A DNA stretch of 64,000 bases from Deltaproteobacteria bacterium (GTDB taxonomy: Bacteria; Desulfobacterota; BSN033; UBA1163): contig JBBIMX010000004.1 in assembly GCA_037444165.1 (NCBI GenBank), positions 19-64,018 on the forward strand, given 5' to 3'. Of the stretch, positions 1 through 61,640 are shown in pieces. The position numbers and the translations under genes are program-made. The first letter of the stretch is position 1. Every line of letters begins with the position of its first letter. The notes beneath the pieces are model-generated. The model was given only the letters and a program-made list of their open reading frames with translations, made no database searches and was not told where the DNA came from.

Positions 1-68
1 TGACTGTTTGCGAGATTATAATAAAATATAAAATCAATCCCTGAAACGAAGGAGCAGAAAAAAAACAG

Positions 69-1091: not shown

Positions 1092-1100
1092 CGATAAGAG

Positions 1101-31629: not shown

Positions 31630-32784
31630 ATGCGGGTCTTCGTTACAGATGGACACTTCAGGAAAACACTGGCCCTCGTTCGATCCCTTGGGGAAAAAAG
31701 GGTTTCGGTCACAGTGGGTGAGAGAACCTTTCTCAATACCTCCTTTTTCTCAAAGTACTGTTCAAATCGAGTCGTCTACCCCTCTCCCCGACGATATCCC
31801 CAACGATTTATTGAATATCTATTAACGGAAATTAGAACACATCACTATGACTGCCTCTTTCCGATGGAAGAGGAAACCCTTATCTTGATTGCAAAATATC
31901 AATCTGAGATTTCGAAACATACCTATCTCCTCATTCCTGAGCTCGAAAAGATTGAGTTTGTCCGTGATAAAGGAAAACTGATCCAATTTGCAGAAACTCA
32001 TGGGATTCCAGTGCCAAAAACTTACCCGTCCTTTTCCTCTCCTCCCCCCTCCCTTCCCATTCCAGCCGTGATCAAGCCCCGGATCAGCTCCGGTTCCTTT
32101 GGAATTCTCTATGTGAAAAAAAGGGAAGAACTTCACCCTTCCTATCAAAAGGTCCATGAGCGTTATCCATTCCCTTTGATCCAGGAATATATCCCAGACG
32201 GAGGAGGAACCTTTGGCCTCTCTGCCCTCTTTGATGAGGCCTCAAAGGTGAAGGCTGCCTTCGTTCATAAGAAGTTAAGGATGTATCCTGTTCAAGGAGG
32301 ACCAAGTACGCTGAGGGAGAGTGTAAACCATCCCCAGATTATGGAGATGGGGCTCTCCCTATTAAAAGCATTGAATTGGGTTGGGGTGGCGATGGTCGAA
32401 TTTAAGGTGGATCCAAGAGATGGGCTGCCGAAACTCATGGAGGTCAATCCCAGATTCTGGGGTTCTTTACAATTAGCCATCCTCTCCGGGATAGACTTTC
32501 CCTATTTGATTCTAAGAATGGCAAAAGGGGAAAAGATTGAGCCGGTTCTTCATTACGAAGTGGGAAGACGGTGCCGGTGGCTTCTGCTTGGGGATGTCCT
32601 TCATTTTTTAAAGAATCCCAATCGATTCAAGCTTAACCCTTCTTTCTTTCGCTTCTTTGATCCCAATACCTCTGACGATATCCTTTCAAAAAAGGACCCT
32701 TTTGCCGTCTTAGGGGCCATGGCCACCTTCCTTACCTTCCTTTATGATCCCGAAATGAAACGCTTTCTTGAAAGAAGGGGATAG
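31630..32784 (+). CDS. ATP-grasp superfamily enzyme (COG3919-like predicted carboxylate-amine ligase)
   Basis: An N-terminal pre-ATP-grasp domain and a central ATP-grasp fold (EYIPDGGG..., MVEFKVD) are present. Confidence 0.6.
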   Translation: MRVFVTDGHFRKTLALVRSLGEKRVSVTVGERTFLNTSFFSKYCSNRVVYPSPRRYPQRFIEYLLTEIRTHHYDCLFPMEEETLILIAKYQSEISKHTYLLIPELEKIEFVRDKGKLIQFAETHGIPVPKTYPSFSSPPPSLPIPAVIKPRISSGSFGILYVKKREELHPSYQKVHERYPFPLIQEYIPDGGGTFGLSALFDEASKVKAAFVHKKLRMYPVQGGPSTLRESVNHPQIMEMGLSLLKALNWVGVAMVEFKVDPRDGLPKLMEVNPRFWGSLQLAILSGIDFPYLILRMAKGEKIEPVLHYEVGRRCRWLLLGDVLHFLKNPNRFKLNPSFFRFFDPNTSDDILSKKDPFAVLGAMATFLTFLYDPEMKRFLERRG

Positions 32785-32851
32785 AAGAGATTCGATTCCC
32801 CTTGAAATTGAAGCTCGAAATAAAGAAAATGATAGAAAATGAAAAGGAACG

Positions 32852-33544
32852 GTGATGATGATCTCCAAAGAAAAAATCTGTATCCTCATCCCTGCCTATA
32901 ATGCTCAGAACACGATTGGACCTGTCCTGGAGAAAGCCTGTTCCTTGGGGTTAGATACCCTTGTCGTCAACGATGGGTCCACGGATGGGACTTCAGCAAT
33001 AGTCCAAAGCTATGGGGTGAAGCTCTTGGAACATCCCAAGAATCTTGGAAAAGGGGCATCTCTTCGGACTGGATTTCAATATCTCCTTGAGAAGAATTAT
33101 GAGTTAGTCATTACGCTCGATGCGGATGGTCAACACGATCCCTTAGAAATTCCCCTCCTTCTTAAAGCCTTTGATCGGGCGGAACCTGATCTTCTCATTG
33201 GTTCGAGAGCTGCAGAATTCGGGCAGATGCCTTTTCTTCGCCGGTTCTGGAATCGATTGGGAGTGAGGGCAGTCAGTCGCCTCTGTCACGCCGATATTAC
33301 GGATAGTCAATCAGGATTTCGAGTGATGCGAACAGAGCTGTTACGAAGGATTTCTCTCACCACAAAGGGATTTGACACCGAATTGGAACTTTTGATCAAA
33401 GCTTGCAAAATGGGGTTTCGTGTGTTATCCATTCCTGTACATTCTCAAAAATTTAATGGCCCATTTCCCAGTCATTTTAAACCCGTCAAAGACACATGGT
33501 TGGTTTGTAAATTATTTCTCAGGAGTCTCTTTTGGAAGGCATAG
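32852..33544 (+). CDS. Family 2 glycosyltransferase (DPM1-like)
   Basis: The GT-A fold motifs ILIPAYNAQNTIG, VNDGSTDGT and a DAD-type DxD motif are present. Confidence 0.8.
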   Translation: MMMISKEKICILIPAYNAQNTIGPVLEKACSLGLDTLVVNDGSTDGTSAIVQSYGVKLLEHPKNLGKGASLRTGFQYLLEKNYELVITLDADGQHDPLEIPLLLKAFDRAEPDLLIGSRAAEFGQMPFLRRFWNRLGVRAVSRLCHADITDSQSGFRVMRTELLRRISLTTKGFDTELELLIKACKMGFRVLSIPVHSQKFNGPFPSHFKPVKDTWLVCKLFLRSLFWKA

Positions 33545-33549
33545 AATAA

Positions 33550-34947
33550 ATGGATATTTATCAAAAGGCTAAACACTATTCGATCGAAAAATTTACCGTC
33601 AGTGCCTTATCCCTTCTGTCCAATGCGTCAGAGGAGCATTTGATTCGATTGACCATTCTGGCCGAAAAGATTCCCCAGAAAGAATCCTATCGGGAAAAGA
33701 TTCGCTGGATTCGAACCCTCTTTGAAACCCATCATCCTGGATTGACCTTGGCTAAAAGAGTTCTCAGCCAAACCCATCCCCTTCATCGACATAAACTGAT
33801 CTCAAACTTCATCATCAATCAACTCCTCGTGGGAACGAATCAACGAAAAGCCTTTGCGGAAAAAAGCGGGTTCTACCCACCCGATGCCATGCTCCTCAGT
33901 CCCACGATGAGATGTAACCTCCGATGTTATGGTTGTTATGCAGGGTCCTATTCAAAGCAAGAGGATCTCCCCTTGGAGATTATTGATCGACTGATAGAAG
34001 AATGCAAAGGGATGGGAATCTATTTGGTTCTGATGACCGGAGGGGAACCCTTTCTGAGGGAAGACCTTTTTGATCTCTTCGAGAAGCATGGGGACTGTCT
34101 CTTCCAAATTTATACCAATGCCACTCTTATCGATGAGAGGATGATCGAACGATTGGTTTCTCTGGGAAACGTGGTTCCAGCGATCAGCCTCGAAGGGTTC
34201 CGAGAGGAGACCGATGAAAGAAGGGGAAAAGGGCGATTTGATCAAATCCTTAAGGTGATGGATGGGCTAAGGAGGGCCGGCCTCTTCTTCGCTGTCTCCA
34301 CCACTCAGACCTCGAAAAATACAGAGGTATTGGGCAGCGAGGCTTTCGTTGACTTTTTGATTGAGAAGGGATGCATCCTCCTCTGGAATTTTCATTATGT
34401 TCCCATTGGAAAGGACCCGGATCTCAGTTTGATGGCCACCCCGGAACAGAGACAGAAGATCAGGCAACGCTTTGCGTATTTTCGGGCGACTAAACCCATG
34501 CTCTTTGTGGACTTCTGGAATGATGGTTGTCTGACCGGGGGGTGTATCGCAGCTGGGAGAAAGTACTTCCACGTCAATGCAAGAGGGGATGTTGAACCCT
34601 GTGTGTTCTGTCATTTCGCCTCGGATAATATCAAAGAAACGACCCTTTTCGAAGCCCTCAACTCACCCCTCTTCAAAGAGATCCGTAAAAGACAGCCCTT
34701 CTCGGAGAACCTCTATCGTCCCTGTCTTTTGATTGATCATCCGGAACAAGGAAGAGAGATTGCCTTAAAGCATGCCCGATACTTCACCCACCCCCAAGCC
34801 GAACAATTCTTTACCGAATTCTCTCAGGCCATTGATGCCTACGCGAAACGGTATGGTGAGATTGCCGAGAGGGCTTGGCAAGAACAGAAACAACTGAAAA
34901 ACCAACAAAGGGGTCATGGCCAAAAGGTTGCGGGTAGACATGGATGA
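33550..34947 (+). CDS. Radical SAM enzyme with a SPASM/twitch-like C-terminal Fe-S domain and an N-terminal extension of about 100 aa
   Basis: A CxxxCxxC motif (CNLRCYGCYAG) is followed by GGEPF. The C-terminal cysteine cluster GGCIAAG...CVFCHF is SPASM-like. Confidence 0.7.
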   Translation: MDIYQKAKHYSIEKFTVSALSLLSNASEEHLIRLTILAEKIPQKESYREKIRWIRTLFETHHPGLTLAKRVLSQTHPLHRHKLISNFIINQLLVGTNQRKAFAEKSGFYPPDAMLLSPTMRCNLRCYGCYAGSYSKQEDLPLEIIDRLIEECKGMGIYLVLMTGGEPFLREDLFDLFEKHGDCLFQIYTNATLIDERMIERLVSLGNVVPAISLEGFREETDERRGKGRFDQILKVMDGLRRAGLFFAVSTTQTSKNTEVLGSEAFVDFLIEKGCILLWNFHYVPIGKDPDLSLMATPEQRQKIRQRFAYFRATKPMLFVDFWNDGCLTGGCIAAGRKYFHVNARGDVEPCVFCHFASDNIKETTLFEALNSPLFKEIRKRQPFSENLYRPCLLIDHPEQGREIALKHARYFTHPQAEQFFTEFSQAIDAYAKRYGEIAERAWQEQKQLKNQQRGHGQKVAGRHG

Positions 34948-36044
34948 AAGTTACCTTTCCTCATCTTGGCACCATGCATATCTTCTGCAAGGCCATTGCA
35001 GAGACCTCCCACATCCCTTATGTCGTTCCTCCTGAGACCAGTCGCAGAACCCTTACCTTAGGCGTTCAACATTCAAACGAATGTATCTGTCTTCCTTTTA
35101 AAATCATCCTGGGGAATTTCATCGAGGCCCTGGAACGGGGGGCAGATACGATTGTCATGGTTGGAAGTGGTCCTCCCTGTCGACTGGGACTCTATGATCT
35201 GGTTCACAAAGTCATTCTCGAAGACCTTGGGCTTCCTTTTCGATGGCTGACGATCCCTCCTCGATTGACCTGGCAGGCCTTCTGGAAAAACTATGAAGAG
35301 ACAAAGGAGCTCAAAAAAGAGTTGACCTGGAAAAATATTCTTCTTTTCCCTTATGGACTCTATATGGGATGGAAGAAGATGATGGCCTGTGAGACCCTCG
35401 AGAAGCTGGCGATGAAGGTCAGGCCAAAAGAGATCCGAAAGGGAGAGACTCAGAAAAGATTAAAGAAGGCCCTCGATTGGGTGGATAAAGCTCAAACGCC
35501 AAAAAAAGTGGAGGAAGCCCTGAAGGGGGGAGAAAAACTCCTTCTAAACACGGAACAGGATCCTTCTCGAGCCGTTCTTAAAATTGCCATCGTAGGGGAA
35601 CTCTATACGGTGATGGATCCCCATATCAATCGAGGAGTCGAACAGAAATTAGGAGAATTGGGAGCAGAGGTCACCCGTTCTTCCTGGTTTTCCACCCATA
35701 TCCTCAGAAGTCTGAGAAAAAATAAAGCCAATCGACTCTCGGAGAGGATTCAGTTCCTCGAGGCTTCAAAGCTTTATCTGGGTTATGACGTGGGAGCGGA
35801 GTGTAATGTCTCGATAGGAGAAGCGATCTTAAGATCCAGAGAGGGGTATGATGGGGTCGTCCATCTCATGCCCTTTGCCTGTATGCCTGAGACTACCGCT
35901 TCCGGGATTTTAACCCGGGTGGGGAAGGATTGGAACATCCCCATCCTGACCCTTCTTCTGGATGAACAGGAAATCGAGGGCCGGATTCAAACTCTCCTTG
36001 AGGCCTTTGTGGAGATGTTGCAGTGGAAGAGAAAGGGGTCATAG
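34944..36044 (+). CDS. 2-hydroxyacyl-CoA dehydratase-like / activase-associated protein (DUF2229-type domain)
   Basis: The conserved cysteines (ECICLPF, GPPCRLG) resemble the C-terminal modules of fused CoA-substrate-specific enzyme activase proteins. The start overlaps the upstream stop as ATGA. Confidence 0.45.
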   Translation: MKVTFPHLGTMHIFCKAIAETSHIPYVVPPETSRRTLTLGVQHSNECICLPFKIILGNFIEALERGADTIVMVGSGPPCRLGLYDLVHKVILEDLGLPFRWLTIPPRLTWQAFWKNYEETKELKKELTWKNILLFPYGLYMGWKKMMACETLEKLAMKVRPKEIRKGETQKRLKKALDWVDKAQTPKKVEEALKGGEKLLLNTEQDPSRAVLKIAIVGELYTVMDPHINRGVEQKLGELGAEVTRSSWFSTHILRSLRKNKANRLSERIQFLEASKLYLGYDVGAECNVSIGEAILRSREGYDGVVHLMPFACMPETTASGILTRVGKDWNIPILTLLLDEQEIEGRIQTLLEAFVEMLQWKRKGS

Positions 36045-37042
36045 GAATTCCAAGGGCATTGATGTTTTATCGATATTTCCCCCTCTGGAGGAGTTTCTTC
36101 GAGGAGTTGGGTTGGAAGGTCCTCACCTCGGAGGAGTTAGGGAAAAGGGGAAGGCTTATCTATTTTGAGGACAGTTGCCTTCCCATGAAACTTTTAGTCA
36201 CCCATTCCCTCTCTTTAAAGGAAAGGGTCGACTTCCTATTCATTCCCCGCTTGGTCAGCCTCGATCGAGATTATATCATGTGCCCTAAGTTTCGAGGGGC
36301 TCCAGACATTGCTCGATTAGCCATGGAGGGATCCCCTCCAATACTGGATGAAACCATCGATGGACGAACGAAAGGATTTTCCTGGGAGGACGCCTTTTTA
36401 AGGATTGGAAAGAGATTGGGGGCTCAAAGAAAGGACATTCAAAAGGCTATCAAGAAGGCCTGGACTTTTTATTTCAATTTCATGAAGGGATGGGAAGAAC
36501 GGATCAATACCCTTCCTTTGAATCAACTTTGGGAATTTGAAATCCCTCCCGAGACCTCACAAAGAAAGGAGGAGCAATCCTATCGCGTAGCCTTAATAGG
36601 ACATCCTTACAATCTTTATGATAGGGATATCAGTAAAGATCTCCTCTCCTTTATTCGAAAGCTTGGGATGAGAATCACCACCTCGGATTCCCTTTCAAAA
36701 AAAGAGGTGGAGCAGGAGGTCTCAGGTCTTTCAAAAGAGATCTACTGGTCCTCAGGAAGAGAGATAGTCGGCTCTCTGTTTCACTTTCTCTCCAGCTCCC
36801 TTGATGGGGTGATTTTTCTTACCTCTTTCAAATGCGGGATCGATGCCCTCCTTCAGGAATTTGTCAAAAGAAGATTAAAGTGGATGGGAGAAAGCAAGAA
36901 GCCTCTCCTCATCCTCACCCTCGATGAGCATTCAGGAAGGGAGGGGTTGATGACACGGCTTGAAGCCTTCAGGGATGTGTTGGAACAAAAGAAGATTCAA
37001 AATCCGATCCATGAGGGTCAAAACCCTCTCACGGATGGTTAA
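36023..37042 (+). CDS. 2-hydroxyglutaryl-CoA dehydratase D-component-like protein (HGD-D family)
   Basis: The N-terminus (IGIPRALMFYRYFPLWRSFFEELGWKVLTS) is the HGD-D hallmark. It has a translationally coupled overlap with the upstream gene. Confidence 0.55.
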   Translation: MEEKGVIGIPRALMFYRYFPLWRSFFEELGWKVLTSEELGKRGRLIYFEDSCLPMKLLVTHSLSLKERVDFLFIPRLVSLDRDYIMCPKFRGAPDIARLAMEGSPPILDETIDGRTKGFSWEDAFLRIGKRLGAQRKDIQKAIKKAWTFYFNFMKGWEERINTLPLNQLWEFEIPPETSQRKEEQSYRVALIGHPYNLYDRDISKDLLSFIRKLGMRITTSDSLSKKEVEQEVSGLSKEIYWSSGREIVGSLFHFLSSSLDGVIFLTSFKCGIDALLQEFVKRRLKWMGESKKPLLILTLDEHSGREGLMTRLEAFRDVLEQKKIQNPIHEGQNPLTDG

Positions 37043-37044
37043 CG

Positions 37045-37986
37045 ATGGGACTTTATTTAGGAATTGATGTAGGGTCGATCACCACAAAAATGGCCGTCCT
37101 CAATGAGCAGGATGAGGTTTTAGCCCATGTCTATCTTCGAAACAATGGCCGACCCCTTGAAGCGATAAAGAAGGGACTCGAGCAGATTGAGTCTCAACTG
37201 GGAGTCCTTTCAGGGGTGGAGGGGGTGGCCACCACTGGCAGTGCTCGACATCTTGCAGCCTATCTGATCGGGGCCGATCTGATCAAGAATGAAATTACCG
37301 CCCATGCCATCGCTGTGATTGAATCTTTTCCAGAAGCCAAAACGATCATGGAGATTGGAGGACAGGATTCGAAGGTCATCCTCTTGAGGGAAGGGGTGGT
37401 GGTTGACTTTGCAATGAATACGGTCTGCGCGGCAGGGACAGGTTCGTTCCTGGATCAACAGGCCTCCCGGTTAGGAATTTCTATCGAAGAATTTGGCCGT
37501 TTAGCTCTTCGGGCAAAACACCCTGTCCGGATTGCAGGGCGATGTACGGTCTTTGCGGAAACCGATATGATTCACAAACAGCAGATCGGCCATGCGATGG
37601 AGGATATCCTCGCAGGACTGTGTGACTCTCTGGTGAAGAACTATTTGAATAATGTGTGTCGAGGAAAGGAGATCCTCCCTCCTGTGGTCTTTCAGGGAGG
37701 GGTAGCGGCGAATCCCGGGATACGCCAAGCCCTTGAGAAAGAACTGGGATTTGAACTGATCCTTCCAGAGTATTATGGGGTCATGGGAGCCATTGGAGCG
37801 GCCAAGCTCGTCAAACGGAGCAAACCCCAAAAGACACGATTCAAAGGATTTGAATGGTCTCGAAAACCCTGTCAAACTCGGGGCTTTGAATGTAACGAAT
37901 GCGGAAATCAGTGCGAGGTCATCCAACTCTGGGTGGACGATGAAGTGGTCGCCTCCTGGGGCGATCTCTGTGAGAGATATCGATGA
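37045..37986 (+). CDS. CoA-substrate-specific enzyme activase (BadF/BadG/BcrA/BcrD ATPase family, HgdC-like)
   Basis: The ASKHA fold N-terminus (LGIDVGSITTKMAV) and the AMNTVCAAGTGSFLD motif, with the cluster-bridging Cys, are present. The C-terminus is Cys-rich. Confidence 0.75.
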   Translation: MGLYLGIDVGSITTKMAVLNEQDEVLAHVYLRNNGRPLEAIKKGLEQIESQLGVLSGVEGVATTGSARHLAAYLIGADLIKNEITAHAIAVIESFPEAKTIMEIGGQDSKVILLREGVVVDFAMNTVCAAGTGSFLDQQASRLGISIEEFGRLALRAKHPVRIAGRCTVFAETDMIHKQQIGHAMEDILAGLCDSLVKNYLNNVCRGKEILPPVVFQGGVAANPGIRQALEKELGFELILPEYYGVMGAIGAAKLVKRSKPQKTRFKGFEWSRKPCQTRGFECNECGNQCEVIQLWVDDEVVASWGDLCERYR

Positions 37987-39353
37987 AGATTCTGATGATT
38001 AATCCCGCGCCCATCGGAACATTGAAAGCAACGGGTGTGCTCTTTCCACCCCTTGGTCTTCTTTACGTCGCTGCCGTTGCTGAAAAAGAAGGCCATGAGG
38101 TGGAGGTCGTGGATCTGGCTCTTCAAAAGAAGGGAGAAAAGATTGATTTTAAAAGGTATGAGATTGTAGGAATCTCTACGGACACGACCCGGCATCGCCA
38201 GGCTCTCCAATTGGCTAAGAGGGCGAAAAGAGAAGGCTGCACGGTAATCATGGGAGGCCCTCACCCGACCTATGTGGACAAAGAGATTCTCTCCACCGAA
38301 ATGGTCGATTTTATTGTTCGAGGAGAGGGAGAAGTCACTTTCTCGGAATTGATTTCAACTTTAAATCGGGAAAAGGGCAAGTTGGATTCCGTACAGGGGA
38401 TCAGTTTTTTATCCAAAGGCGAAATCCTTCGAACCCCCAGCCGCCCCTTTATTGAGAATCTCGATGAACTCCCCTTCCCTGCCAGGCATCTGGTTCCGAT
38501 GGAGAAGTACCGGCGAACAAAAATGGGAGACCGGGAGGTCACTCCTATCCTGACCAGTCGGGGGTGTCCATTTCAGTGCACCTTTTGTGCCTCATCCCAT
38601 TTTTTTGGAACGAAGGTCAGGCTTCGGAGTCCTGCATCGGTATTAAAGGAGCTCGAAGAACTCTATCATCGATACTCCTTTCAGGCCGTTGCCTTTGTGG
38701 ATGATACCTTCACTCTCTTTCCGGATAGGGTGATCGAAATTGGTAAAGGAATTCTGGAAAGAGGGATGAACCTCTGGTGGTGGTGTCTTTCGAGAGCGGA
38801 CCTTCTCATTCGAAACGAAGAGATGATTCAATGGATGGTTCGGTCAGGGGCGAAATCGGTCTTCATTGGAGTTGAGTCGGCCAATCCAAAGACCCTTGAG
38901 AGTCTGAAAAAAAGGATCGATCGAAACACCACGACTCGGGCTGTTGAAATGCTGAAACGATATGGCCTCGAGATCCATGCCTCTTATATCTTAGGCGGAC
39001 TCGATGAGACGGCTCGGGCAATTCATGAAACGATCCGATTGGCAAAAGAACTGGACACGAATGTGGCCCAATTTTCCATCCTTACCCCCTATCCAGGGAC
39101 CCTCCTCTATGAGCAGTTGAAGGATCGGATCTTCAGGTGGAGAGCTCCATGGTCATTTTTCGACATGCAACATCTGGTCTTCAAACACGACCATCTCTCC
39201 TTCATTCGGATGGAATGGCTTTTGATGAAGGCTCATCTTCTCTACTATCTGCGATCAAAGAAAGGGATTCGTGATCTCTGGCATCATATTAAAAAACACC
39301 GGATTACCCTTCGAACCTTCTTTCAATTTCTTAAAGAATACTTCTGGGGATAA
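37983..39353 (+). CDS. Cobalamin-binding (class B) radical SAM enzyme, paralog 1
   Basis: An N-terminal B12-binding Rossmann domain (MKILMINPAP...GHEVEVVDLA) is followed by a radical SAM core (RGCPFQCTFCAS). Confidence 0.8.
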   Translation: MKILMINPAPIGTLKATGVLFPPLGLLYVAAVAEKEGHEVEVVDLALQKKGEKIDFKRYEIVGISTDTTRHRQALQLAKRAKREGCTVIMGGPHPTYVDKEILSTEMVDFIVRGEGEVTFSELISTLNREKGKLDSVQGISFLSKGEILRTPSRPFIENLDELPFPARHLVPMEKYRRTKMGDREVTPILTSRGCPFQCTFCASSHFFGTKVRLRSPASVLKELEELYHRYSFQAVAFVDDTFTLFPDRVIEIGKGILERGMNLWWWCLSRADLLIRNEEMIQWMVRSGAKSVFIGVESANPKTLESLKKRIDRNTTTRAVEMLKRYGLEIHASYILGGLDETARAIHETIRLAKELDTNVAQFSILTPYPGTLLYEQLKDRIFRWRAPWSFFDMQHLVFKHDHLSFIRMEWLLMKAHLLYYLRSKKGIRDLWHHIKKHRITLRTFFQFLKEYFWG

Positions 39354-39355
39354 AG

Positions 39356-40270
39356 ATGGAGAATCGAGATCGTCTCTCTACCTACCGATTTCTCTCCCTC
39401 TTTCTCTTCCAATTCTTCTCTACCCTTATCCCCCGTTCCATGCAGAAGTTCTTCAGTGTCGTCGTAGGAGATCTCTTCTATTTATTGATGCCCAAGACAA
39501 GGACTTCTGTTCGAAAGAATATCGAAGGGATCAGCCAAGGAAGATGGGCGAAAGGAAAGATTGAAACCTATACCCGTAAAACTTTTCAGAACTATGGACA
39601 GTATCTCTTAGATTATATGGTCATGCATCGACTCTCTCCTTCTCATAAAGACCGGTGGGTGGAAGAAGAGATTGGAGGTCACTATATGATAGAAGCCCTC
39701 CAGAGAGGAAAAGGGGTGATCTGTATCACTCCTCATCTTGGAAACTGGGAGCTGGGAGGACTCCTCTTTTCCTTTAAAGGAGGAAAACTCAATGTCCTTA
39801 CCCTGGACGAAGAAGATCGAGGAATTAAATCTTATCGTGAAGAGATGCGAAGAAGATGGGGGATTCGAAACATCTATATTCACCCCGGAGACGATTCTCC
39901 TCTGGCCACCCTCGAAGCGGTTCAAGCATTGAGGCGAAATGAGATTGTGGCCATGTTGGGAGATCGGATCGAAACTCAGAGGACGATGGAGTTGGATTTC
40001 TTTGGTAAGAAAACCCCTTTCCCCATTGGAGCAGCCTTGATGGCCATGACCACAGGGGCTGCGGTCCTCCCGGTCTTTGTCGTCATGGAAAGGAATCGAA
40101 AATATCGAGGGATCATCGAATCCCCTGTCTATTTTGATTCCTCTTCTCGAGAGGAACGCGAATCCATCCTGAGAAAAGGGATGGAAGAGATCGTGAAAAA
40201 ATTTGAATCCTATATCGAAAAATATCCTGATCAATGGTATAATTTTTATTCTTATTGGAACGATTCCTGA
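39356..40270 (+). CDS. LpxL/HtrB-family lysophospholipid (lipid A-type) acyltransferase
   Basis: The HX4D-type motif ITPHLGNWELGG is present, with an N-terminal TM anchor. It is in the LPLAT_LABLAT-like family. Confidence 0.75.
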   Translation: MENRDRLSTYRFLSLFLFQFFSTLIPRSMQKFFSVVVGDLFYLLMPKTRTSVRKNIEGISQGRWAKGKIETYTRKTFQNYGQYLLDYMVMHRLSPSHKDRWVEEEIGGHYMIEALQRGKGVICITPHLGNWELGGLLFSFKGGKLNVLTLDEEDRGIKSYREEMRRRWGIRNIYIHPGDDSPLATLEAVQALRRNEIVAMLGDRIETQRTMELDFFGKKTPFPIGAALMAMTTGAAVLPVFVVMERNRKYRGIIESPVYFDSSSREERESILRKGMEEIVKKFESYIEKYPDQWYNFYSYWNDS

Positions 40271-40295
40271 GATCGATAAAAAGAGGGAGTTTCCA

Positions 40296-40565
40296 ATGAC
40301 ACCAAAGGATGAGATGATCGAAAAGATGAAACGACTCATTATTACGAGGTTAAAGCTGGTGGAGATGACCCCCGAAATGATTGACCCAGAGGCTCCCCTC
40401 TTCGGAGAGGGACTTGGACTGGATTCCATCGATGCCCTTGAGTTGGTATTAGGTTTGGAAAAAGAGTTTGGTGTCATGATCCCGGATGCGGAGGTGGGTA
40501 AAAAGGTCTTCCAATCGGTAAGAACGATGGCCGAGTATGTTTTAGACCATCAGCTCAAAGGTTAA
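40296..40565 (+). CDS. Acyl carrier protein
   Basis: The phosphopantetheine attachment motif GLGLDSIDALELV is present in a helical bundle of about 90 aa. The start is taken at MTPKDE. Confidence 0.8.
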   Translation: MTPKDEMIEKMKRLIITRLKLVEMTPEMIDPEAPLFGEGLGLDSIDALELVLGLEKEFGVMIPDAEVGKKVFQSVRTMAEYVLDHQLKG

Positions 40566-40569
40566 AGAG

Positions 40570-41502
40570 ATGGAAGCCAAAAACAAAATTGCCTTCTGTT
40601 TCCCAGGACAAATTCAGGAAAGACCCATTCTTTCGAAGTACCACCCCCTCTCTGAAGACCCTTTCTTCCGAGATTGGGTAGATCGGGCAGAGAAGGAAAC
40701 TGGAATAGAATTATGGAAATTTATGAACGAGGAGACGGAGGGAGAGCAAGTCCCTCTCAAATTACAGCTCACCACCTATCTCTTCTCGGTGATCTATTTT
40801 CAACGACTTTTAGAGAAAGGATGGACTCCTGAAATCCTCACCGAACATAGCATGGGAATCTATGCAGCGCTCACCGCTTCCGAGGCCATCACCTTTGAAG
40901 AAGGACTCTTTATCACCCATTCCATTGGGAGACTTCTCGAGGAAGAAGGGGCTCTCTGCCCCGGGATGATGGCAAGCATCATCGGTCTTCCTCTTGAAGA
41001 AATCCAGAAGATTATCAGTACCCTTGATGGATATCGCTTAGCCATTGCCAATTACAATGGATCAATGCATTTTGTGATTTCAGGAGAGGAGGAGGGGGTT
41101 CAAAAAGCGATGGAGCTTGCCCTGGCCCGGAAGGCCCTTTCAGTGAGTAAACTTTCTTTCAACACGGCTCTTCACTCTCCTCCCCTGAGCCATCTCAGGG
41201 GAAAGATCCGGGATCTGTTGAGGGAGATTGAAGTCCGTCCATTCCGGTATCCTATTCTTAATCACTGGACCATCCAACCACTCAACCGGGGGGAAGTGAA
41301 AGACTTTCTTTCCGAAGAGATTGCCCGCCCGGTTTACTGGGTTCGATGTGTGGAGAAATGTATTCAGGAAGGGGTTCGTCAGTTCGTCGAAGTCGGCAAA
41401 GAATCGACCCTGACGAAACTGATTCGTTGGATTGATCGGGAGGTCGAGGCCCTCTCGGCTGAGGAACTCCTCTTCTCGGGGGGACGAGATGGGATCCTAT
41501 GA
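40570..41502 (+). CDS. ACP S-malonyltransferase-like acyltransferase (FabD family)
   Basis: The sequences IAFCFPGQ and the nucleophile motif EHSMGIYAAL (GHSxG-like) are present. Length is 310 aa. Confidence 0.7.
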   Translation: MEAKNKIAFCFPGQIQERPILSKYHPLSEDPFFRDWVDRAEKETGIELWKFMNEETEGEQVPLKLQLTTYLFSVIYFQRLLEKGWTPEILTEHSMGIYAALTASEAITFEEGLFITHSIGRLLEEEGALCPGMMASIIGLPLEEIQKIISTLDGYRLAIANYNGSMHFVISGEEEGVQKAMELALARKALSVSKLSFNTALHSPPLSHLRGKIRDLLREIEVRPFRYPILNHWTIQPLNRGEVKDFLSEEIARPVYWVRCVEKCIQEGVRQFVEVGKESTLTKLIRWIDREVEALSAEELLFSGGRDGIL

Positions 41503-41911
41503 AACTCGATTCCGGGTTCGTTTTCATGAGGTCGATGCTTATGGAATGGTCTGGCATGGTCATTTTGTGGCCTGGTTTGAAATGGGTCGAAATGAATTGA
41601 CTGAAAAATTTGGCTTGGGCCCCTTTCAACTCAAGGGAAGAGGGCTCTTGGCTCCGGTGGTCCATCTTTCCTGTGAATTCAAACAACCTGCTCGGTTCGG
41701 AGAGACCCTTCTCCTTCAAACGAGTATGGAAAGGACGGAAGTGGCCAAGTTAATCTTTCATTATCGAATCCTCCACCAAGGAGAAGAAAAGATAGTGGCG
41801 ACAGGATCGACGACCCATGTGTTGACCGATCTCAATGGAAATCTCCTTTACCGGATCCCTCCCGACCTCCTTAAAAAGATAGAAGAGATGATGAAATTTT
41901 TAGGGGTATAG
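41489..41911 (+). CDS. Hotdog-fold acyl-CoA/acyl-ACP thioesterase (4HBT/YbgC family)
   Basis: The sequence VRFHEVDAYGMVWHGHFVAWFEMGRNE is typical of 4HBT. The start overlaps the upstream stop. Confidence 0.7.
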   Translation: MGSYETRFRVRFHEVDAYGMVWHGHFVAWFEMGRNELTEKFGLGPFQLKGRGLLAPVVHLSCEFKQPARFGETLLLQTSMERTEVAKLIFHYRILHQGEEKIVATGSTTHVLTDLNGNLLYRIPPDLLKKIEEMMKFLGV

Positions 41912-41912
41912 G

Positions 41913-43349
41913 ATGAAGGTTTTATTGATCGATCCTCCCCATCGAATCTTCCCTGGGTTAAGAATGTGGGCTCCTTCCTTTGGTCTTCTCCAACTCTCCG
42001 CCTATCTGGAAGCCGAGGGAGTGAGCGTTCAAATCATAGATGGAACCACTCTTCGAGAACCCTGGAAAGAGCTTCAAGAACAGATCGTCTCCTCAAAAGC
42101 CGATGTGATTGGAATCACCTGTACAGCTACCTGTCTATCTCCCGAAGCGATTCAGACGATTTATCTTTCACGAAGACTTTCTCCTCGATCCATCCTCGTG
42201 GGAGGAGGAAGTCACTTCACCCTGATGGCCAAAACCATTCTCGAGGAGGTTCCCGATCTGGACTACATTGTTCTGGGGGAAGGAGAGATCGCCTTTCTTC
42301 AACTTCTCAAAAGCCTTTCCAATGGAAAAAATGGAAGAGAGGTGAGGGGAATCGCCTATCGGGAAGATGGAAGGGTGATTCTCAATGAAAGACAGCCATT
42401 GATTACTCCTCTGGATGGTCTTCCTCTTCCAGCCTATCATCTCATCGATGTCGAGAGCGAAGCCTACTACTGGCATGGAATGGGTCGAAGGGCCTTTGGA
42501 GTGTCCACCAGTCGGGGATGTGGGGATCACTGTAGCTACTGTTCCGAGACAAAATTTTGGGAAGGGGTCTGGAGGGGAAGAAGCGGGAAGAAGGTCGTCG
42601 AGGAGATCTCCTTCCTTTATCGAAAATATGGAAAAAGTCTCTTTGTCTTTAATGAAAACGCCTTCAATTGGAGTCGGAAACGGCTGGAGGAGTTTCTCGA
42701 AGAGTTAGGAAAATCAGGGCTCCGGATTCATTTCTGGTTCCAATCTCGAGTGAAAGATATCCTGAGGGACGAAGATCTCCTTCCGGAAATGAAGCGCCTC
42801 GGCCTTTATGAGGTGATGTTAGGGATTGAGAGCATTCAACCCGACGTCCTACAGCGATATGAAAAAGACCAGTCTCGGGAGTTGGCTGAGAAGGCGATTG
42901 AGCTCCTTCGTCGAAATGGGATCATGGTCATGGCTAACGTCATGTTTGGGGATTGGAATGATTCGGAGGCCAATCTGAAAGAGATCTTTCGTTTTGTGAA
43001 AAAAAAGAGCGATTTCTTAGTCCTCACCATCACCACTCCTCTCCCTGGGACAAAATACTTCGAAGAGGCGGAGCGTCTGGGAAGGATAAGGGAAAAGGAC
43101 TTTGGAAAATACGACTTTATGCATCCCGTCATGGATACAAAATTTCTCTCCGCTCCTGAGGTAGAGCGACTTCAAAAGGCTTACCTTAAAAAGTATTATA
43201 CCCAACCGAGGATTCTGCTCGGAGCCTTCTTTAACCCAAACCCTTTTAAGAGAATGGCCTACCGACTCATCTTAAGATACGTCTGGGAGAATGCCACAAA
43301 GAGACCCTGGAAGCAACCCAATTGGAAAGATGACAGGCAAGAGGGATAG
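41913..43349 (+). CDS. Cobalamin-binding (class B) radical SAM enzyme, paralog 2
   Basis: B12-binding N-terminus (MKVLLIDPPHR...GVSVQIIDG). The radical SAM motif is RGCGDHCSYCSE. Confidence 0.8.
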   Translation: MKVLLIDPPHRIFPGLRMWAPSFGLLQLSAYLEAEGVSVQIIDGTTLREPWKELQEQIVSSKADVIGITCTATCLSPEAIQTIYLSRRLSPRSILVGGGSHFTLMAKTILEEVPDLDYIVLGEGEIAFLQLLKSLSNGKNGREVRGIAYREDGRVILNERQPLITPLDGLPLPAYHLIDVESEAYYWHGMGRRAFGVSTSRGCGDHCSYCSETKFWEGVWRGRSGKKVVEEISFLYRKYGKSLFVFNENAFNWSRKRLEEFLEELGKSGLRIHFWFQSRVKDILRDEDLLPEMKRLGLYEVMLGIESIQPDVLQRYEKDQSRELAEKAIELLRRNGIMVMANVMFGDWNDSEANLKEIFRFVKKKSDFLVLTITTPLPGTKYFEEAERLGRIREKDFGKYDFMHPVMDTKFLSAPEVERLQKAYLKKYYTQPRILLGAFFNPNPFKRMAYRLILRYVWENATKRPWKQPNWKDDRQEG

Positions 43350-43352
43350 AGA

Positions 43353-44696
43353 TTGAAATCAAAATCCACTCCCCACTCTCCGAATTCGAAAAAGGTCCTT
43401 CTTATCTTTCCGAGGGAGAAGGGGATCAAATTTTCAAACGATACCTTCTATCCCTTTCCCATGATTGGCCTTCCTCTTCTGGCCGCCTATTTTCCCAACA
43501 CCTACGAGGTCAAAATTCTAAACGAAGCCATCGAACCGATCGATTTCGATACGGAAGTGGATCTGGTCGGAATCACTGCCCTTACCTGTATAGCGCACCG
43601 GGCCTATGAAGTGGCGGATCGGTTCCGAAGAAGAGGGGTAAAGGTCATTTTAGGAGGGGTTCACCCAAGCATTCAACCTGAGGAGGCAAAGGAACACGCC
43701 GATTCTGTGGTGATTGGGGAAGCAGAAGGGGTCCTTGGAGAGATCCTCAAAGACTTTGAAGCCGGGGCCCTTAAACCTTTTTATCAGAATCATTCCCTGT
43801 GTGACTTAAGAGGACTCCCCTTGCCGAGAAGGGATCTTCTGAGTAAACGGTACAGCCCCTTGTTTAAGGCGATCGAAACCACCCGGGGCTGTCCCCATCG
43901 ATGCGAATTCTGTTCGGTCCCCATTCTCAATGGGAGAAGGTATCGGATGCGACCCCTCGAGGAGGTCGATCGGGAACTCTCCCTGATCATCAAAAAGCCA
44001 AAGGAGTATCTCTTTGTTACCGATGACAACATCGTCGCCATCGAGGATTATGCCCTCGGCCTCTTTGACATCTTTAAACGGCATCAGGTGAGATGGATGG
44101 GGTTTTCTACCCTTCAGATTGCAACCAATGAGACACTTCTGCGGAAAGCGAGCGAGAGTGGGTGTCTCTCTCTCTTTATCGGATTCGAATCCCTCCTTCA
44201 AGAGAATCTCAATCACGTCTCAAAGTCCTTTGTTCACACCGAACTTCTTCCGGAGTGGATTAGGAGCATTCATGGCTATGGAATTGGCATCCATGGTTCT
44301 TTCATCTTTGGCTTTGATGGGGATGATTCAACGATCTTTCGGAAAACCGTTGAGTTTGTTCAAAAGAATCGAATCGATCTTCCCTCTTTTTCTATCCTCA
44401 CCCCTTTTCCGGGGACTCGACTCTATCAGCGGTTAGAAGAGGAAGGCCGGATCATTGACCGCAATTGGTCCCATTACGATATGAGCCATGTCGTCTTTCA
44501 ACCCAAGCAGATGACGGTCAGACAGCTTCAAGAGGGATATCTCTGGGCTCAACAGTATAGCTGTTCTCCTCGTTCGATCTTCCAACGCCTCCTCTGGAGG
44601 TGGAGAAATCACTTTTTCTTTTTTTTAATGTCAAATTTTGTCCTCCGGGGAGCCCAAATGGATGTGATTCGAAGAATAAGAAAAAGGCCCCAATAA
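43353..44696 (+). CDS. Cobalamin-binding (class B) radical SAM enzyme, paralog 3
   Basis: B12-binding N-terminus (VLLIFPREKG...). The radical SAM motif is RGCPHRCEFCSVP. Confidence 0.8.
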   Translation: MKSKSTPHSPNSKKVLLIFPREKGIKFSNDTFYPFPMIGLPLLAAYFPNTYEVKILNEAIEPIDFDTEVDLVGITALTCIAHRAYEVADRFRRRGVKVILGGVHPSIQPEEAKEHADSVVIGEAEGVLGEILKDFEAGALKPFYQNHSLCDLRGLPLPRRDLLSKRYSPLFKAIETTRGCPHRCEFCSVPILNGRRYRMRPLEEVDRELSLIIKKPKEYLFVTDDNIVAIEDYALGLFDIFKRHQVRWMGFSTLQIATNETLLRKASESGCLSLFIGFESLLQENLNHVSKSFVHTELLPEWIRSIHGYGIGIHGSFIFGFDGDDSTIFRKTVEFVQKNRIDLPSFSILTPFPGTRLYQRLEEEGRIIDRNWSHYDMSHVVFQPKQMTVRQLQEGYLWAQQYSCSPRSIFQRLLWRWRNHFFFFLMSNFVLRGAQMDVIRRIRKRPQ

Positions 44697-44700
44697 AAGG

Positions 44701-46110
44701 ATGAAGATTCTACTGATCTCTATCAATCGGGAACGAATGCCGGCTCCTGTTTTTCCTCTGGGGCTGGCCTATATCGCCCGAGCTTTAAAAGAGAGGGGAC
44801 ATCGGATAGAAGTATCGGATCTCTGTTTTTCTCAAGATCCCTCTCACGAGGTTCAAGAGGTCCTCTTTCGATTTCAACCGGATCTCATAGGACTCTCCCT
44901 GAGAAATCTTGACAATCTGACCTATCCCCACTCTCTCTCTTATCTTGATGAACTCAAAGAGGTGATCTCCATCTGTCGTCAACTCCCCTCATCAAAATTA
45001 GTCCTCGGTGGCTCAGGGTTCTCCCTCGCACCTAAGGAACTCTTCAATGAACTGGATGTGGATTTTGGGATTATTGGAGAGGGGGAGGAGATCATGGTGA
45101 AACTGGTGGAATCTCTCGAAAGGAAGGAACCCCTCCCTTTCCTCCCCTCTCTTCTCATCAAAGGGGAACCGATCCCCTCTAAAATCGAAGGGGCCAGAGC
45201 CCCGTTGAGTTTTACCCCGGAACGCTCTTTCTTCAAGAGTGAGCGTTATCTCAGGGAAGGGGGAATGCTTAATCTTCAAACCAAACGGGGTTGCCCTTTC
45301 TCTTGTATCTACTGCACGTACCCTCTTCTGGAAGGCAAAGAGGTGAGACTCCGGCAGATAGAGGAAGTCATCGAAGAGATCCGACACCTCATCCAAGACG
45401 AGGGAGCGGATTATCTCTATTTCGTTGACGACCTCTTCAATTATCCCTCTTCCTATGCCGAGCAGTTATGTCGAAAGATGGTTCGGGAAGGACTGAAGGT
45501 TCGGTGGAGCGCCTTTATCCATCCTCGCTTTCTTTCCAAAGAACTCTTAAAATGGATGAAAGAGGCGGGATGTGTGGGGATTGAATTTGGAACCGACTCG
45601 GGTTCACCCAGAATGCTTAAACAGTATCGAAAAGCCTTTTCTCAAGAAGAGATCGTCCGCTCTTCCCGAATCTGTGAGGAACTCGGGATGAATTACTGTC
45701 ATTATCTTCTGCTGGGAGGACCTGGAGAGGATGAGGAAACCATCGAAGAATCCTTTCAATTGATGGATCGGCTCAATCCGACTGCAGTCATTGCTATGTT
45801 AGGGATCCGTATCTATCCGGGAACAGAACTCCATCGACTCGCTCTTCTCGAAGGGAGGATCCAGAAAGGGACTAATCTCGCCTATCCCATTTTTTATCTC
45901 TCTCCGAAACTTGAAGGAAGATTAGAAGAGATCCTTCGTGAAAAGGCCATGGAGCGAAGACAGTGGATCGTTCCAGGTCTCGAGATCAATCTCTCCAATA
46001 CCCTGATGGAACAGATTCGACAATTTCAGATTCGAGGTCCCCTGTGGGACCTTGTAGGCAGAATGAAACGGCCAAGAATAAGACCCTTAAAAAATGACGG
46101 AAGTCATTAA
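44701..46110 (+). CDS. Cobalamin-binding (class B) radical SAM enzyme, paralog 4
   Basis: B12-binding N-terminus (MKILLISINRERMPAP...GHRIEVSDL). The radical SAM motif is RGCPFSCIYCTYP. Confidence 0.8.
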   Translation: MKILLISINRERMPAPVFPLGLAYIARALKERGHRIEVSDLCFSQDPSHEVQEVLFRFQPDLIGLSLRNLDNLTYPHSLSYLDELKEVISICRQLPSSKLVLGGSGFSLAPKELFNELDVDFGIIGEGEEIMVKLVESLERKEPLPFLPSLLIKGEPIPSKIEGARAPLSFTPERSFFKSERYLREGGMLNLQTKRGCPFSCIYCTYPLLEGKEVRLRQIEEVIEEIRHLIQDEGADYLYFVDDLFNYPSSYAEQLCRKMVREGLKVRWSAFIHPRFLSKELLKWMKEAGCVGIEFGTDSGSPRMLKQYRKAFSQEEIVRSSRICEELGMNYCHYLLLGGPGEDEETIEESFQLMDRLNPTAVIAMLGIRIYPGTELHRLALLEGRIQKGTNLAYPIFYLSPKLEGRLEEILREKAMERRQWIVPGLEINLSNTLMEQIRQFQIRGPLWDLVGRMKRPRIRPLKNDGSH

Positions 46111-46125
46111 ATCGATTGTGGGAGG

Positions 46126-46872
46126 TTGACCATGTTACTTCAAGATAAGGTGGCAATTGTGACCGGGGGAACTCGAGGGATTGGAAGGGCCATCTCTCTC
46201 CTCTTCGCAGAGGAGGGGGCAAGGGTCGTGGCTAACTTTTCGAAAAACGTGGAGGCTGCAGAGTCCTTAATTGAAGAAGCTCGGAGCAAAAAATTGACAT
46301 TAGGGCTCTTTAAGGCCGATGTGACCCAATTTGATCAAGTCAAGGAGATGGTGGAGGAGGTCTTCAGAGGATACGGAAGAATCGATATTTTAGTGAATAA
46401 TGTGGGACTCGTCCGAGACAATTTTCTGATGCTCATGAGTGATGAAGATTGGGACTCCCTCCTCAAGGCAAATCTTACAAGTCTTTTTTATTGCTGTAGG
46501 GCTGTCATTCGGAAGATGATTCCGGAGCGAAGAGGGAAAATTGTCAATCTCTCTTCCATCAGTGGTATCCTTGGAACTTCTGGTCAAACCAACTATGCAG
46601 CGACCAAAGGAGGAGTGATCGGTTTTACCAAATCCCTGGCTCGAGAATTAGGACCCTTCAATATTCAGGTCAATGCGGTGGCTCCAGGATTGATTGAATC
46701 TGAGGTGGTCTCAAAAATGCCAAAAGAAAGGGTAGAGGCCATTATTAAATCCTCAAGCCTGGGAAGGATGGGGAAACCTGAGGAAGTGGCCCAGGCGGTC
46801 CTCTTCTTGGCCTCAGATCGTTCAAGTTATATCACCGGCCAAACCCTCATCGTCGATGGGGGAATCTTATAG
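46126..46872 (+). CDS. fabG: 3-oxoacyl-ACP reductase (SDR family, FabG-like)
   Basis: The cofactor-binding motif [11 protein letters not shown] and the catalytic motifs S...NYAATK are present, with similarity over the full length. Confidence 0.85.
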
Positions 46873-46877
46873 GGAAA

Positions 46878-49138: not shown

Positions 49139-49159
49139 CCCATAGTCTCACGGAGAGAC

Positions 49160-49657: not shown

Positions 49658-49666
49658 GCCATTTTC

Positions 49667-51157: not shown

Positions 51158-51161
51158 TCCG

Positions 51162-52523: not shown

Positions 52524-52537
52524 AAAGGGAGTCCGCG

Positions 52538-53683: not shown

Positions 53684-53747
53684 GCCCTCCTTGACTCTCC
53701 CCATCTATCTCTTTTATGAAAAAAGAAGATCAGGAGTTTAACGAACG

Positions 53748-55376: not shown

Positions 55377-55385
55377 GAAGAACCT

Positions 55386-58069: not shown

Positions 58070-58080
58070 AGGAGAAGACC

Positions 58081-59295: not shown

Positions 59296-59321
59296 CAAAC
59301 CCTTTTGGGTTCATTTATAAA
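59292..59321 (+). promoter_or_regulatory. Sigma70-type promoter: TTGACA, a 17 nt spacer, and TTATAAAT
   Basis: Consensus hexamers lie between icd and korD. The spacer contains the small hairpin AACCCTTTTGGGTT. Confidence 0.4.
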
Positions 59322-59358
59322 TAGTTCAGAAATTTAAAGTAATAAGCGAGAAAGTTTA

Positions 59359-61623: not shown

Positions 61624-61640
61624 ACGGAGAAGAATCAAAG

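Follow-up and report, generated by a model that had tools for sequence, protein, structure and literature searches.

The three-gene locus

The 64,000-nt stretch of DNA from a Deltaproteobacteria bacterium analyzed here (contig JBBIMX010000004.1; hereafter, the window, positions in which serve as coordinates throughout) contains, at 34944-37986, three adjacent genes that encode two reductase subunits, A and B, and an ATP-dependent activase. The trio comprises genes 4-6 of 16 tightly packed plus-strand genes spanning 31630-48095 (Table 1). The other genes encode, among others, a dedicated acyl carrier protein (ACP), an O-acyltransferase and several radical S-adenosylmethionine (SAM) enzymes. The three open reading frames (ORFs) of the trio have the same coordinates as in the initial annotation, which had been made from the sequence alone, and are closely coupled. 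The start codon of the A gene shares an ATGA with the stop codon of the upstream radical SAM (SPASM) gene, the A and B genes overlap by 22 nt, and only 2 nt separate B from the activase gene. The stop codon of the latter, again within an ATGA, overlaps the start of the next gene, which encodes a cobalamin (B12)-binding radical SAM enzyme (B12 radical-SAM 1). The GTG start of B is backed by residues E2, K4, G5, G8, I9 and P10, which are invariant among its homologs. The initial description of the trio, namely, two translationally coupled genes followed by a BadF/BadG/BcrA/BcrD-type ATPase, is thus borne out by the coordinates, the overlaps and the domain content.

Domains, cysteines and fold of the reductase subunits

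The initial annotation also attributed to both A and B the hallmark N-terminus of the HGD-D family along with conserved Cys motifs, and suggested profile searches as a check. At the Pfam cut-offs (29.4 bits for DUF2229, PF09989; 28.4 bits for HGD-D, PF06050), both subunits are recognized as DUF2229 proteins, with scores of 45.9 bits for A and 138.1 bits for B, whereas neither reaches the HGD-D cut-off (25.5 and 18.3 bits, respectively). The sub-threshold similarity to HGD-D is confined to the last ~60 residues of each subunit. The motif IGIPRALMFYRYFPLW is present in B only, not in A, and represents the N-terminus of the DUF2229 profile rather than that of HGD-D. NCBIfam contains no model that matches A, B or the reductase part of the fused proteins discussed below, and none for the characterized DUF2229 enzymes PlsA and Ger.

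The cysteines, in contrast to the HGD-D assignment, withstand scrutiny. C52, C87 and C271 of B are invariant in 49 sequences, and C49, C79 and C313 of A are invariant in 22 sequences, Firmicute homologs included. A comparison with hhalign identifies the two subunits as paralogs (probability 99.7%, E 1.7e-25), and their three-Cys sets align with each other. From these alignments, each subunit is predicted to carry a [4Fe-4S] cluster held by three cysteines.

A phmmer search of the PDB with A and B yielded nothing meaningful, with no chain of a 2-hydroxyacyl-CoA dehydratase (HAD) at E <= 10, so that a comparison of folds was needed. The AlphaFold2 models have a pLDDT of 90.1 for B and 72.5 for A. 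Foldseek matched the B model to the double-cubane cluster protein (DCCP; 7yyl_D, E 8.5e-9), HadB (3o3o_A, 2.2e-8), BzdO and MbdO/N (8s02_B, 9gai_B), and the A model to the same set of proteins (DCCP, HadBC, BzdNO and MbdON; 7yyl_A, E 8.2e-9; 3o3m; 8s02_B), in both cases with a probability of 1.0 and at only 12-17% sequence identity. As judged from these models, A and B share the fold of 2-hydroxyacyl-CoA dehydratases, benzoyl-CoA reductases (BCR) and DCCP. Together with the sequence evidence, this indicates that the trio is correctly placed among the ATP-driven iron-sulfur radical enzymes of the BCR/HAD/DCCP superfamily, with catalysis of this type predicted; there is no support for its membership in the 2-hydroxyacyl-CoA dehydratase family in the strict sense.

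The dehydratases HgdAB/HgdC and HadBC/HadI resemble the trio, as predicted here, in combining a heterodimer of paralogous three-Cys [4Fe-4S] subunits with a homodimeric ASKHA ATPase that holds a bridging cluster. The differences include the low identity of the catalytic subunits (12-15%), the HGD-D scores below the Pfam threshold and the gene neighborhood, in which genes for a CoA-transferase and a 2-hydroxyacid dehydrogenase are absent and the neighbors are lipid and radical SAM genes.

The closest structural match of both A and B is DCCP (DCCP/DCCP-R; PDB 6ENO, 7YYL), whose reductase partner belongs to the same ATPase family as the activase. This match raises the possibility that the trio is a general ATP-driven low-potential reductase that either acts, DCCP-like, on a small molecule or serves as a dedicated electron donor or re-activator for the cobalamin and radical SAM enzymes of the operon, five of which require low-potential electrons; either way, the trio would not modify lipids on its own account. 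We consider this highly improbable. DCCP is a homodimer with a six-Cys [8Fe-9S] site, and a double-cubane cluster reportedly requires six cysteines (Jeoung and Dobbek 2018); A and B, in contrast, are two distinct subunits, with three invariant cysteines each and 14-17% identity to DCCP. Moreover, the minimal gene module and the stand-alone trios described below lack radical SAM genes, and B12 radical-SAM 1 is dispensable even within the operon (18 of 31 loci).

The activase

The assignment of the activase is straightforward: it scores 162.2 bits against the Pfam family BcrAD_BadFG and 196.6 bits against TIGR00241, for which the cut-off is 125.4. Its best matches among PDB sequences are MbdQ (2.6e-39), HadI (1.2e-37) and HgdC (2.5e-34), with CAAGTG and CTVFAE aligned. 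C128, located within AMNTVCAAGTGSF, and C167 correspond to the two cysteines that bridge the inter-subunit cluster in these three proteins. The activase additionally contains a Cys-rich CxxCxxxC...C tail (C283/C286/C290/C309), for which proteins of the length of HgdC and HadI (about 260-276 aa) have no room.

Relationship to the fused activase-reductase proteins

The initial annotation regarded the trio as the split form of the fused 'CoA-substrate-specific enzyme activase' proteins, and module-by-module comparison upholds this view. Scanning a single representative genome for each species, we recovered 45 loci related to the window. Two fused proteins, those of L033 and L045 (1192 aa, partial, and 1495 aa, respectively), were available for comparison and have the same domain order, Act1-Act2-Red1-Red2. 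B aligns with Red1 at 27-28% identity (residues 667-982 of L033 and 753-1064 of L045), A with Red2 at 21-24% (residues 1000-1181 and 1204-1350), and the activase with Act1 and Act2 of L033 alike at 48-49%, although the match is full-length, tail included, to Act2 only. The tail is common to Act2 of both fused proteins and to split activases of Firmicutes and is absent from Act1. The sequence comparison thus identifies the trio, with its gene order Red2-Red1-Act (that is, A-B-activase), as the fully split counterpart of the fused proteins.

According to the initial annotation, the substrates of this family are largely unknown. This statement is contradicted by the recent literature: PlsA/PlsR and Ger, which are fused members of the family and the only DUF2229 enzymes with a demonstrated activity, produce vinyl or alkyl ethers from glycerolipid esters (PMC13159169, PMC9702350, PMC12838417, PMC13274423). 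PlsA/PlsR of Clostridium perfringens and the single-gene PlsA of Enterococcus, Lactococcus and Bifidobacterium produce plasmalogens through reduction of the sn-1 ester (PMC9702350; PMC12838417), whereas Ger, the glycerol ester reductase of Thermotoga maritima and Desulfatibacillum alkenivorans, converts the ester to saturated alkyl ethers (PMC13159169). PlsA and Ger are indistinguishable by sequence, and homologs without activation domains have no known role (PMC13274423, 2026); hence, vinyl and alkyl ether products cannot be told apart by prediction for the trio.

PlsA/PlsR (CPE1194-1195) and the trio have in common the BcrAD activase, Red1 (DUF2229) and Red2 modules, the Cys-based [4Fe-4S] sites and the oxygen-sensitive chemistry of the BCR/HAD type, both predicted for the trio, and the lipid context. 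PlsA/PlsR, however, already known as a two-gene form, stands alone and has two activase domains; the trio consists of three genes with one activase domain and is embedded in an ACP/fatty acid synthesis (FAS)/radical SAM operon, with its function predicted from sequence. Ger (Tmari_0479; SHJ90043), which works under anoxic conditions, belongs to the same family, is assembled from the same building blocks (domain code BBD...) and, in the case of D. alkenivorans, comes from the same phylum, Thermodesulfobacteriota. It is a single polypeptide of ~1,400 residues with two activation domains, a trait that its authors hold to be conserved among alkyl-ether producers; the trio has one separate activase gene instead. 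A homodimer of the activase could supply the two activation domains.

The operon and its missing steps

The genes that surround the trio are listed in Table 1. The ACP and the thioesterase score above curated NCBIfam cut-offs, as do FabG, FabF and B12 radical-SAM 4.

Table 1. Genes of the operon at 31630-48095, with the trio as genes 4-6. The last column gives the number of related loci with the gene over the number of loci whose contig reaches far enough, for the 43 loci that contain a member of the trio.
Gene	Product	Position	Strand	Features and family matches	Related loci
1	ATP-grasp ligase (accessory)	31630-32784	+	Pfam ATPgrasp_Ter/ATP-grasp_3	20/26
2	Family 2 glycosyltransferase (GT2) resembling polyprenyl-phosphate sugar synthases	32852-33544	+	Glycos_transf_2 95.7 bits; best NCBIfam AglJ/PpgS, below cut-off	28/28
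3	Radical SAM enzyme with SPASM domain	33550-34947	+	Pfam Radical_SAM and SPASM	32/32
4	Reductase subunit A (DUF2229; Red2-like)	34944-36044	+	366 aa, ATG; putative [4Fe-4S] ligands C49, C79, C313	38/39
5	Reductase subunit B (DUF2229; Red1-like)	36023-37042	+	339 aa, GTG; putative [4Fe-4S] ligands C52, C87, C271	
6	Activase, ATP-dependent electron-transfer ATPase	37045-37986	+	313 aa, ATG; C128, C167; tail C283/C286/C290/C309	37/37
7	B12 radical-SAM 1 (variable member)	37983-39353	+	Pfam B12-binding and Radical_SAM; BchE/HpnJ/HpnR-like, below cut-offs	18/31
8	LpxL/PatA-type O-acyltransferase	39356-40270	+	Lip_A_acyltrans 109 bits; best NCBIfam phosphatidylinositol mannoside (PIM) acyltransferase 109.7 < 209	30/31
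9	Dedicated ACP (DSI motif)	40296-40565	+	PP-binding 43 bits; NF006617 72.4 > 70; start inferred, internal ATG of ORF 40203-40565	27/28
10	FabD-like acyltransferase (EHSMG active-site motif)	40570-41502	+	Acyl_transf_1 51 bits; TIGR00128 146.5 < 260.9	27/28
11	4HBT/YbgC-type thioesterase (hotdog fold)	41489-41911	+	4HBT_2 57.1 bits; TIGR00051 75 > 68.7; start inferred, internal ATG	24/25
12	B12 radical-SAM 2	41913-43349	+	Pfam; BchE-like 251 bits, below cut-off	25/25
13	B12 radical-SAM 3 (with DUF4070)	43353-44696	+	Pfam	22/24
14	B12 radical-SAM 4	44701-46110	+	TIGR04072 'lipid biosynthesis B12-binding/radical SAM protein' 402.8 > 360	
15	3-oxoacyl-ACP reductase FabG	46126-46872	+	adh_short_C2 224 bits; NF009466 266.5 > 222; TIGR01830 293.3 vs 297.75	
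16	FabF-type beta-ketoacyl-ACP synthase	46878-48095	+	ketoacyl-synt N and C domains; NF005589 435.1 > 387; Cys158/His291/His328 triad intact	

As the initial annotation stated, the operon encodes neither FabZ/FabA nor an enoyl reductase. No FabZ/FabA (PF07977) was detected in the 64 kb by tblastn (best E 0.06) or by Pfam and NCBIfam scans, which covered the larger ORFs outside the operon, and no enoyl reductase was found there either, FabG being the only short-chain dehydrogenase/reductase. The accompanying claim that the cluster contains no hotdog dehydratase holds with respect to the dehydratase, although not to the hotdog fold itself, which is represented by the thioesterase.

Ladderane-type FASII/radical SAM clusters of anammox bacteria and of Desulfotalea/Geobacter resemble the operon in that the ACP, a FabF-type beta-ketoacyl-ACP synthase (KS), FabG and B12 radical SAM enzymes are combined in one lipid cluster. 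The published gene lists of such clusters, including that of Kuenenia, contain FabZ and lack DUF2229 and BcrAD proteins (Rattray 2009; Javidpour 2016). We considered and rejected the interpretation of the operon as a ladderane cluster on the strength of these differences; only a single B12 radical SAM enzyme shares a family (TIGR04072), and no other feature connects the organism of the window, a Thermodesulfobacteriota MAG (metagenome-assembled genome), with ladderanes. The run of B12 radical-SAM 4 (TIGR04072, short name rSAM_ladder_B12), FabG and FabF at 44701-48095 recalls, by comparison with the published gene list alone, kuste2802-2805 of Kuenenia, which the literature lists as a SAM radical enzyme and beta-ketoacyl-ACP synthase (KAS) genes. 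The idea that the SPASM or B12 enzymes are tetraether or membrane-spanning lipid synthases received no support: the SPASM enzyme and B12 radical-SAM 4, the two proteins compared, have no match to tetraether synthase among the PDB sequences at E <= 1e-3.

The operon is preceded by genes for TatAC and a Kef-type antiporter. Directly downstream, at 48173-62243 on the plus strand, there is a run of genes for a TctCBA tricarboxylate transporter, PrpD, PrpF, a pair of FAD/Fe-S oxidoreductases, aconitase, isocitrate dehydrogenase and a 2-oxoacid:ferredoxin oxidoreductase, which looks like a block for tricarboxylate utilization or of the tricarboxylic acid cycle type. A 204-aa PlsC/LPLAT-type acyltransferase at 62267-62881, which scores under the curated cut-offs, is a second lipid acyltransferase in the window and lies outside the operon. 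The idea that the operon is a horizontally transferred island was rejected: its GC content (0.46-0.49) is the same as that of the flanks. A scan of the sequence for promoters and terminators gave counts equal to those in shuffled sequence.

Elsewhere in the window, a 512-aa protein (7463-9001) combines a BamD/YfiO lipoprotein domain and TPR repeats with a C-terminal LptA/LptD_N (OstA) domain, an unusual fusion of modules for outer-membrane assembly and lipopolysaccharide transport. On the minus strand, at 24476-27445, a single 989-aa phosphoribosylformylglycinamidine (FGAM) synthase has an N-terminal PurS fused to PurL.

Conservation of the operon

Of the 45 related loci, 44 come from uncultured metagenome-assembled genomes (MAGs) of the Thermodesulfobacteriota type, with isolate names that hint at an origin from peat, lake, aquifer, serpentinite groundwater and soil. 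L001 is 93-99% identical to the window. Across the 43 loci that contain a member of the trio, the operon is conserved and near-invariant (Table 1). The synteny extends to loci with identities as low as 50% (L033-L035) and survives rearrangements such as those in L029 and L031, where the KAS gene is relocated upstream, on the opposite strand; nevertheless, it may be in part inherited rather than selected, because the loci come from a single lineage. A is more conserved than B, with at least 80% identity among its best 120 homologs. B has ~2,000 word-indexed homologs; every one of the best 120 is a stand-alone protein, 313-394 aa long, encoded in a Deltaproteobacteria/Thermodesulfobacteriota MAG.

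Several loci depart from the common plan. In L033, a Syntrophobacterales MAG, the fused Act-Act-DUF2229 gene of the Ger/PlsA type (positions 1-3577 of that locus, minus strand) lies directly upstream of the operon and is divergently oriented, so that the two forms of the enzyme, fused and split, coexist in this organism. L028 has an extra SPASM radical SAM gene inserted after the activase gene. In L022, the acyltransferase-ACP-FabD-thioesterase block is absent, and the activase gene is directly followed by B12 radical-SAM 2. L020 (16442-20540), from a long-read soil MAG, is an operon variant with an apparently frameshifted B12 radical-SAM 2 gene, downstream of which, on the same strand, a FabZ (PF07977; 47% identity to Escherichia coli FabZ) and two class-I SAM methyltransferases replace B12 radical-SAM 3 and 4 and FabG.

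Minimal modules and stand-alone relatives

When 1.84 billion cluster representatives were searched exhaustively with HMMER, 2,117 clusters were retrieved at E <= 1e-3, with the clade of the window forming one 50%-identity cluster. The best 150 of the 2,117 are nearly all stand-alone proteins of 300-380 aa, with a few Red1-Red2 fusions of 690-770 aa.

Among the nearest outgroups, L050, L052 and L053 contain a minimal module: B (44% identical to that of the window), the activase (63%), an LpxL-type acyltransferase (43-45% in L050 and L052), the ACP (62%) and the thioesterase (43%). A, KS, the ketoacyl reductase (KR) and the radical SAM genes are missing. In L051 (B 42%), the B gene overlaps a KAS gene (60%). 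L054 and L055 (B 40%) encode an acyltransferase, which in L054 belongs to the same Pfam family, three B12 radical SAM enzymes (44-47%), two KAS (54% and 35%) and a phytoene-desaturase-like flavoenzyme, followed by B, A (33%), FabD (34%), FabG (48%) and the ACP (57%). L054 (1-14339) and L055 also contain a polysaccharide deacetylase gene, with no activase gene nearby, and their arrangement resembles the FASII/radical SAM clusters of anammox bacteria and Desulfotalea, with DUF2229 B and A added. The explanation of the L054 genes as a housekeeping fabD-fabG-acpP cluster was rejected in view of the 57% identity of its ACP to the dedicated ACP of the operon.

In Desulfoscipio gibsoniae, Acetivibrio cellulolyticus and the metagenomic contig L057, B-A-activase operons occur with no lipid genes nearby, and self-contained B-A pairs, likewise with no lipid genes in the vicinity, are found in the Nitrospirae-type loci L048 and L056. 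The neighborhood comparison of split homologs that the initial annotation called for thus shows one split branch kept in the near-invariant operon across 43 loci, with others standing alone. In the lipid-linked loci that could be read far enough, the constant partners are the O-acyltransferase and the ACP, not the elongation enzymes.

These loci bear directly on the proposal, made in the initial annotation, that the trio takes the place of FabZ/FabA and/or the enoyl reductase in chain elongation. The proposal draws on the combination of KS and KR with the absence of a dehydratase and an enoyl reductase, a gap that recurs in nearly all related loci. The minimal module, however, has neither KS nor KR, so that there is no elongation cycle to complete, and the stand-alone trios, those of Firmicutes among them, have no FAS genes around them. 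Furthermore, dehydration of a 3-hydroxyacyl thioester is simple acid-base catalysis, and there is no chemical reason to spend ATP on a radical enzyme for it. Given that FabF and FabG are of the canonical type, the housekeeping FabZ and FabI could act in trans, and KS and KR would suffice if the product retains the 3-hydroxyl, as in acyl chains of the lipid A type. Finally, the L020 variant possesses a genuine FabZ of its own. Taken together, these observations make a role of the trio in dehydration or reduction during elongation very unlikely. The link of the split branch to lipid biosynthesis that the same annotation put forward, by contrast, is strengthened by the comparative genomics.

A possible ester-to-ether reductase

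In the interpretation that we favor, the trio makes up a low-potential iron-sulfur reductase that is heteromeric, is driven by ATP and belongs to the PlsA/PlsR-Ger (DUF2229) branch within the BCR/2-hydroxyacyl-CoA dehydratase superfamily. More specifically, there is, in our estimate, close to an even chance that A/B and the activase form an ester-to-ether reductase that acts on the ester made by the neighboring acyltransferase. LpxL/PatA-type enzymes move an acyl group from ACP or CoA onto a hydroxyl, yielding an ester. The ester-to-ether reading is suggested because the acyltransferase creates such an ester and the sole demonstrated chemistry of DUF2229 enzymes is the conversion of lipid esters to ethers, and because the acyltransferase and the ACP, rather than the elongation enzymes, stay with the reductase. 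It is further consistent with the DUF2229 rather than HGD-D affinity of A and B, with the one-to-one correspondence between the three proteins and the fused modules, and with the location of a fused Ger/PlsA-type gene immediately beside the operon in L033.

Under this scenario, C128 and C167 of the activase homodimer would bind a [4Fe-4S] cluster that bridges its subunits, and the homodimer would take up an electron from ferredoxin or flavodoxin. ATP hydrolysis would then allow the activase to inject this electron into the A/B heterodimer, with one three-Cys [4Fe-4S] cluster per subunit, which would reduce the lipid ester carbonyl through a ketyl-type intermediate. Loss of water would produce a vinyl ether, and further reduction may yield an alkyl ether. 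The favored substrate would be the O-acyl ester that the LpxL/PatA-type acyltransferase makes from a chain carried by the ACP of the operon. The operon as a whole would build a specialized ether-linked and probably glycosylated lipid, with FabF and FabG extending the chain and the B12 radical SAM enzymes tailoring it. By analogy with PlsA, the stand-alone B-A-activase operons fit an enzyme that needs no further partners and modifies a lipid already present, and they probably make ethers likewise, on bulk membrane lipids.

Several observations weigh against an ester-to-ether reductase. A and B are only 21-28% identical to the fused members, and the fused proteins used in this comparison, those of L033 and L045, are themselves unvalidated. 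The carriers of the operon in the species-representative scan are all MAGs, none of them from a cultured organism. There is no activase gene near the reductase genes in L054/L055 and L048/L056, and in L022 it is the acyltransferase-ACP block that is missing. In addition, the constancy of the ACP suits equally well an acyl-ACP thioester substrate, which is nearer to HAD/BCR chemistry.

This last point leads to a different scheme, in which A/B and the activase act on an ACP-bound acyl thioester, the ACP replacing CoA, by ketyl chemistry akin to that of HAD and BCR. The enzyme might, for example, remove an alpha-substituent, such as a 2-hydroxyl, that a radical SAM enzyme has installed, or reduce an unsaturated or unreactive acyl group before it is off-loaded by the acyltransferase. 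The structurally characterized relatives, HadBC and BzdNO/MbdON, all use thioesters, and the dedicated ACP is the most constant partner of the trio besides the acyltransferase. The overlap of B with the KAS gene in L051 and the location of B-A immediately before FabD-FabG-ACP in L054 point in the same direction. Conversely, A and B fall in the DUF2229 branch, the known members of which use O-esters, and fail the HGD-D threshold. The module in L050 and L052 lacks any enzyme able to create an unusual ACP-bound substrate, and the stand-alone trios have no ACP nearby. On balance, we consider the acyl-ACP scheme unlikely, although it is the chief competitor of the ester-to-ether reading.

Implications

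Our search of the literature found no description of this operon or of any lipid cluster with a split DUF2229 trio. The enzyme type itself is known; the novelty appears to lie in the division of the enzyme among three genes, in its constant association with an ACP/acyltransferase/B12-radical-SAM pathway and in the minimal module of five genes. Tests have so far been confined to the fused PlsA and Ger enzymes, and recent papers leave the role of the homologs that lack activation domains unclear. We find that the fully split form is widespread and that one branch of it is fixed in a conserved ACP/acyltransferase/B12-radical-SAM operon. The minimal module of reductase, activase, acyltransferase, ACP and thioesterase could be directly expressed and assayed. 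The comparison also corrects the attractive, but poorly supported, idea of a radical dehydratase that replaces FabZ.

The anaerobic synthesis of ether-linked, heavily branched bacterial membrane lipids has been only partly solved, and the problem bears on the 'lipid divide' as well as on lipid-based climate proxies. We advance with considerable doubt the more far-reaching conjecture that the operon is a pathway for undescribed ether-linked, radical-SAM-methylated or cross-linked (glyco)lipids of uncultured Syntrophia-like Thermodesulfobacteriota. The split enzyme would then be the first member of the PlsA/Ger group that is heteromeric and coupled to an ACP pathway, acting on a non-canonical ester and placing the ether, for example, at a position or acceptor that is not a target of the fused Ger. 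If true, this could explain some of the orphan branched alkyl-ether lipids known from geochemical measurements in anoxic settings.

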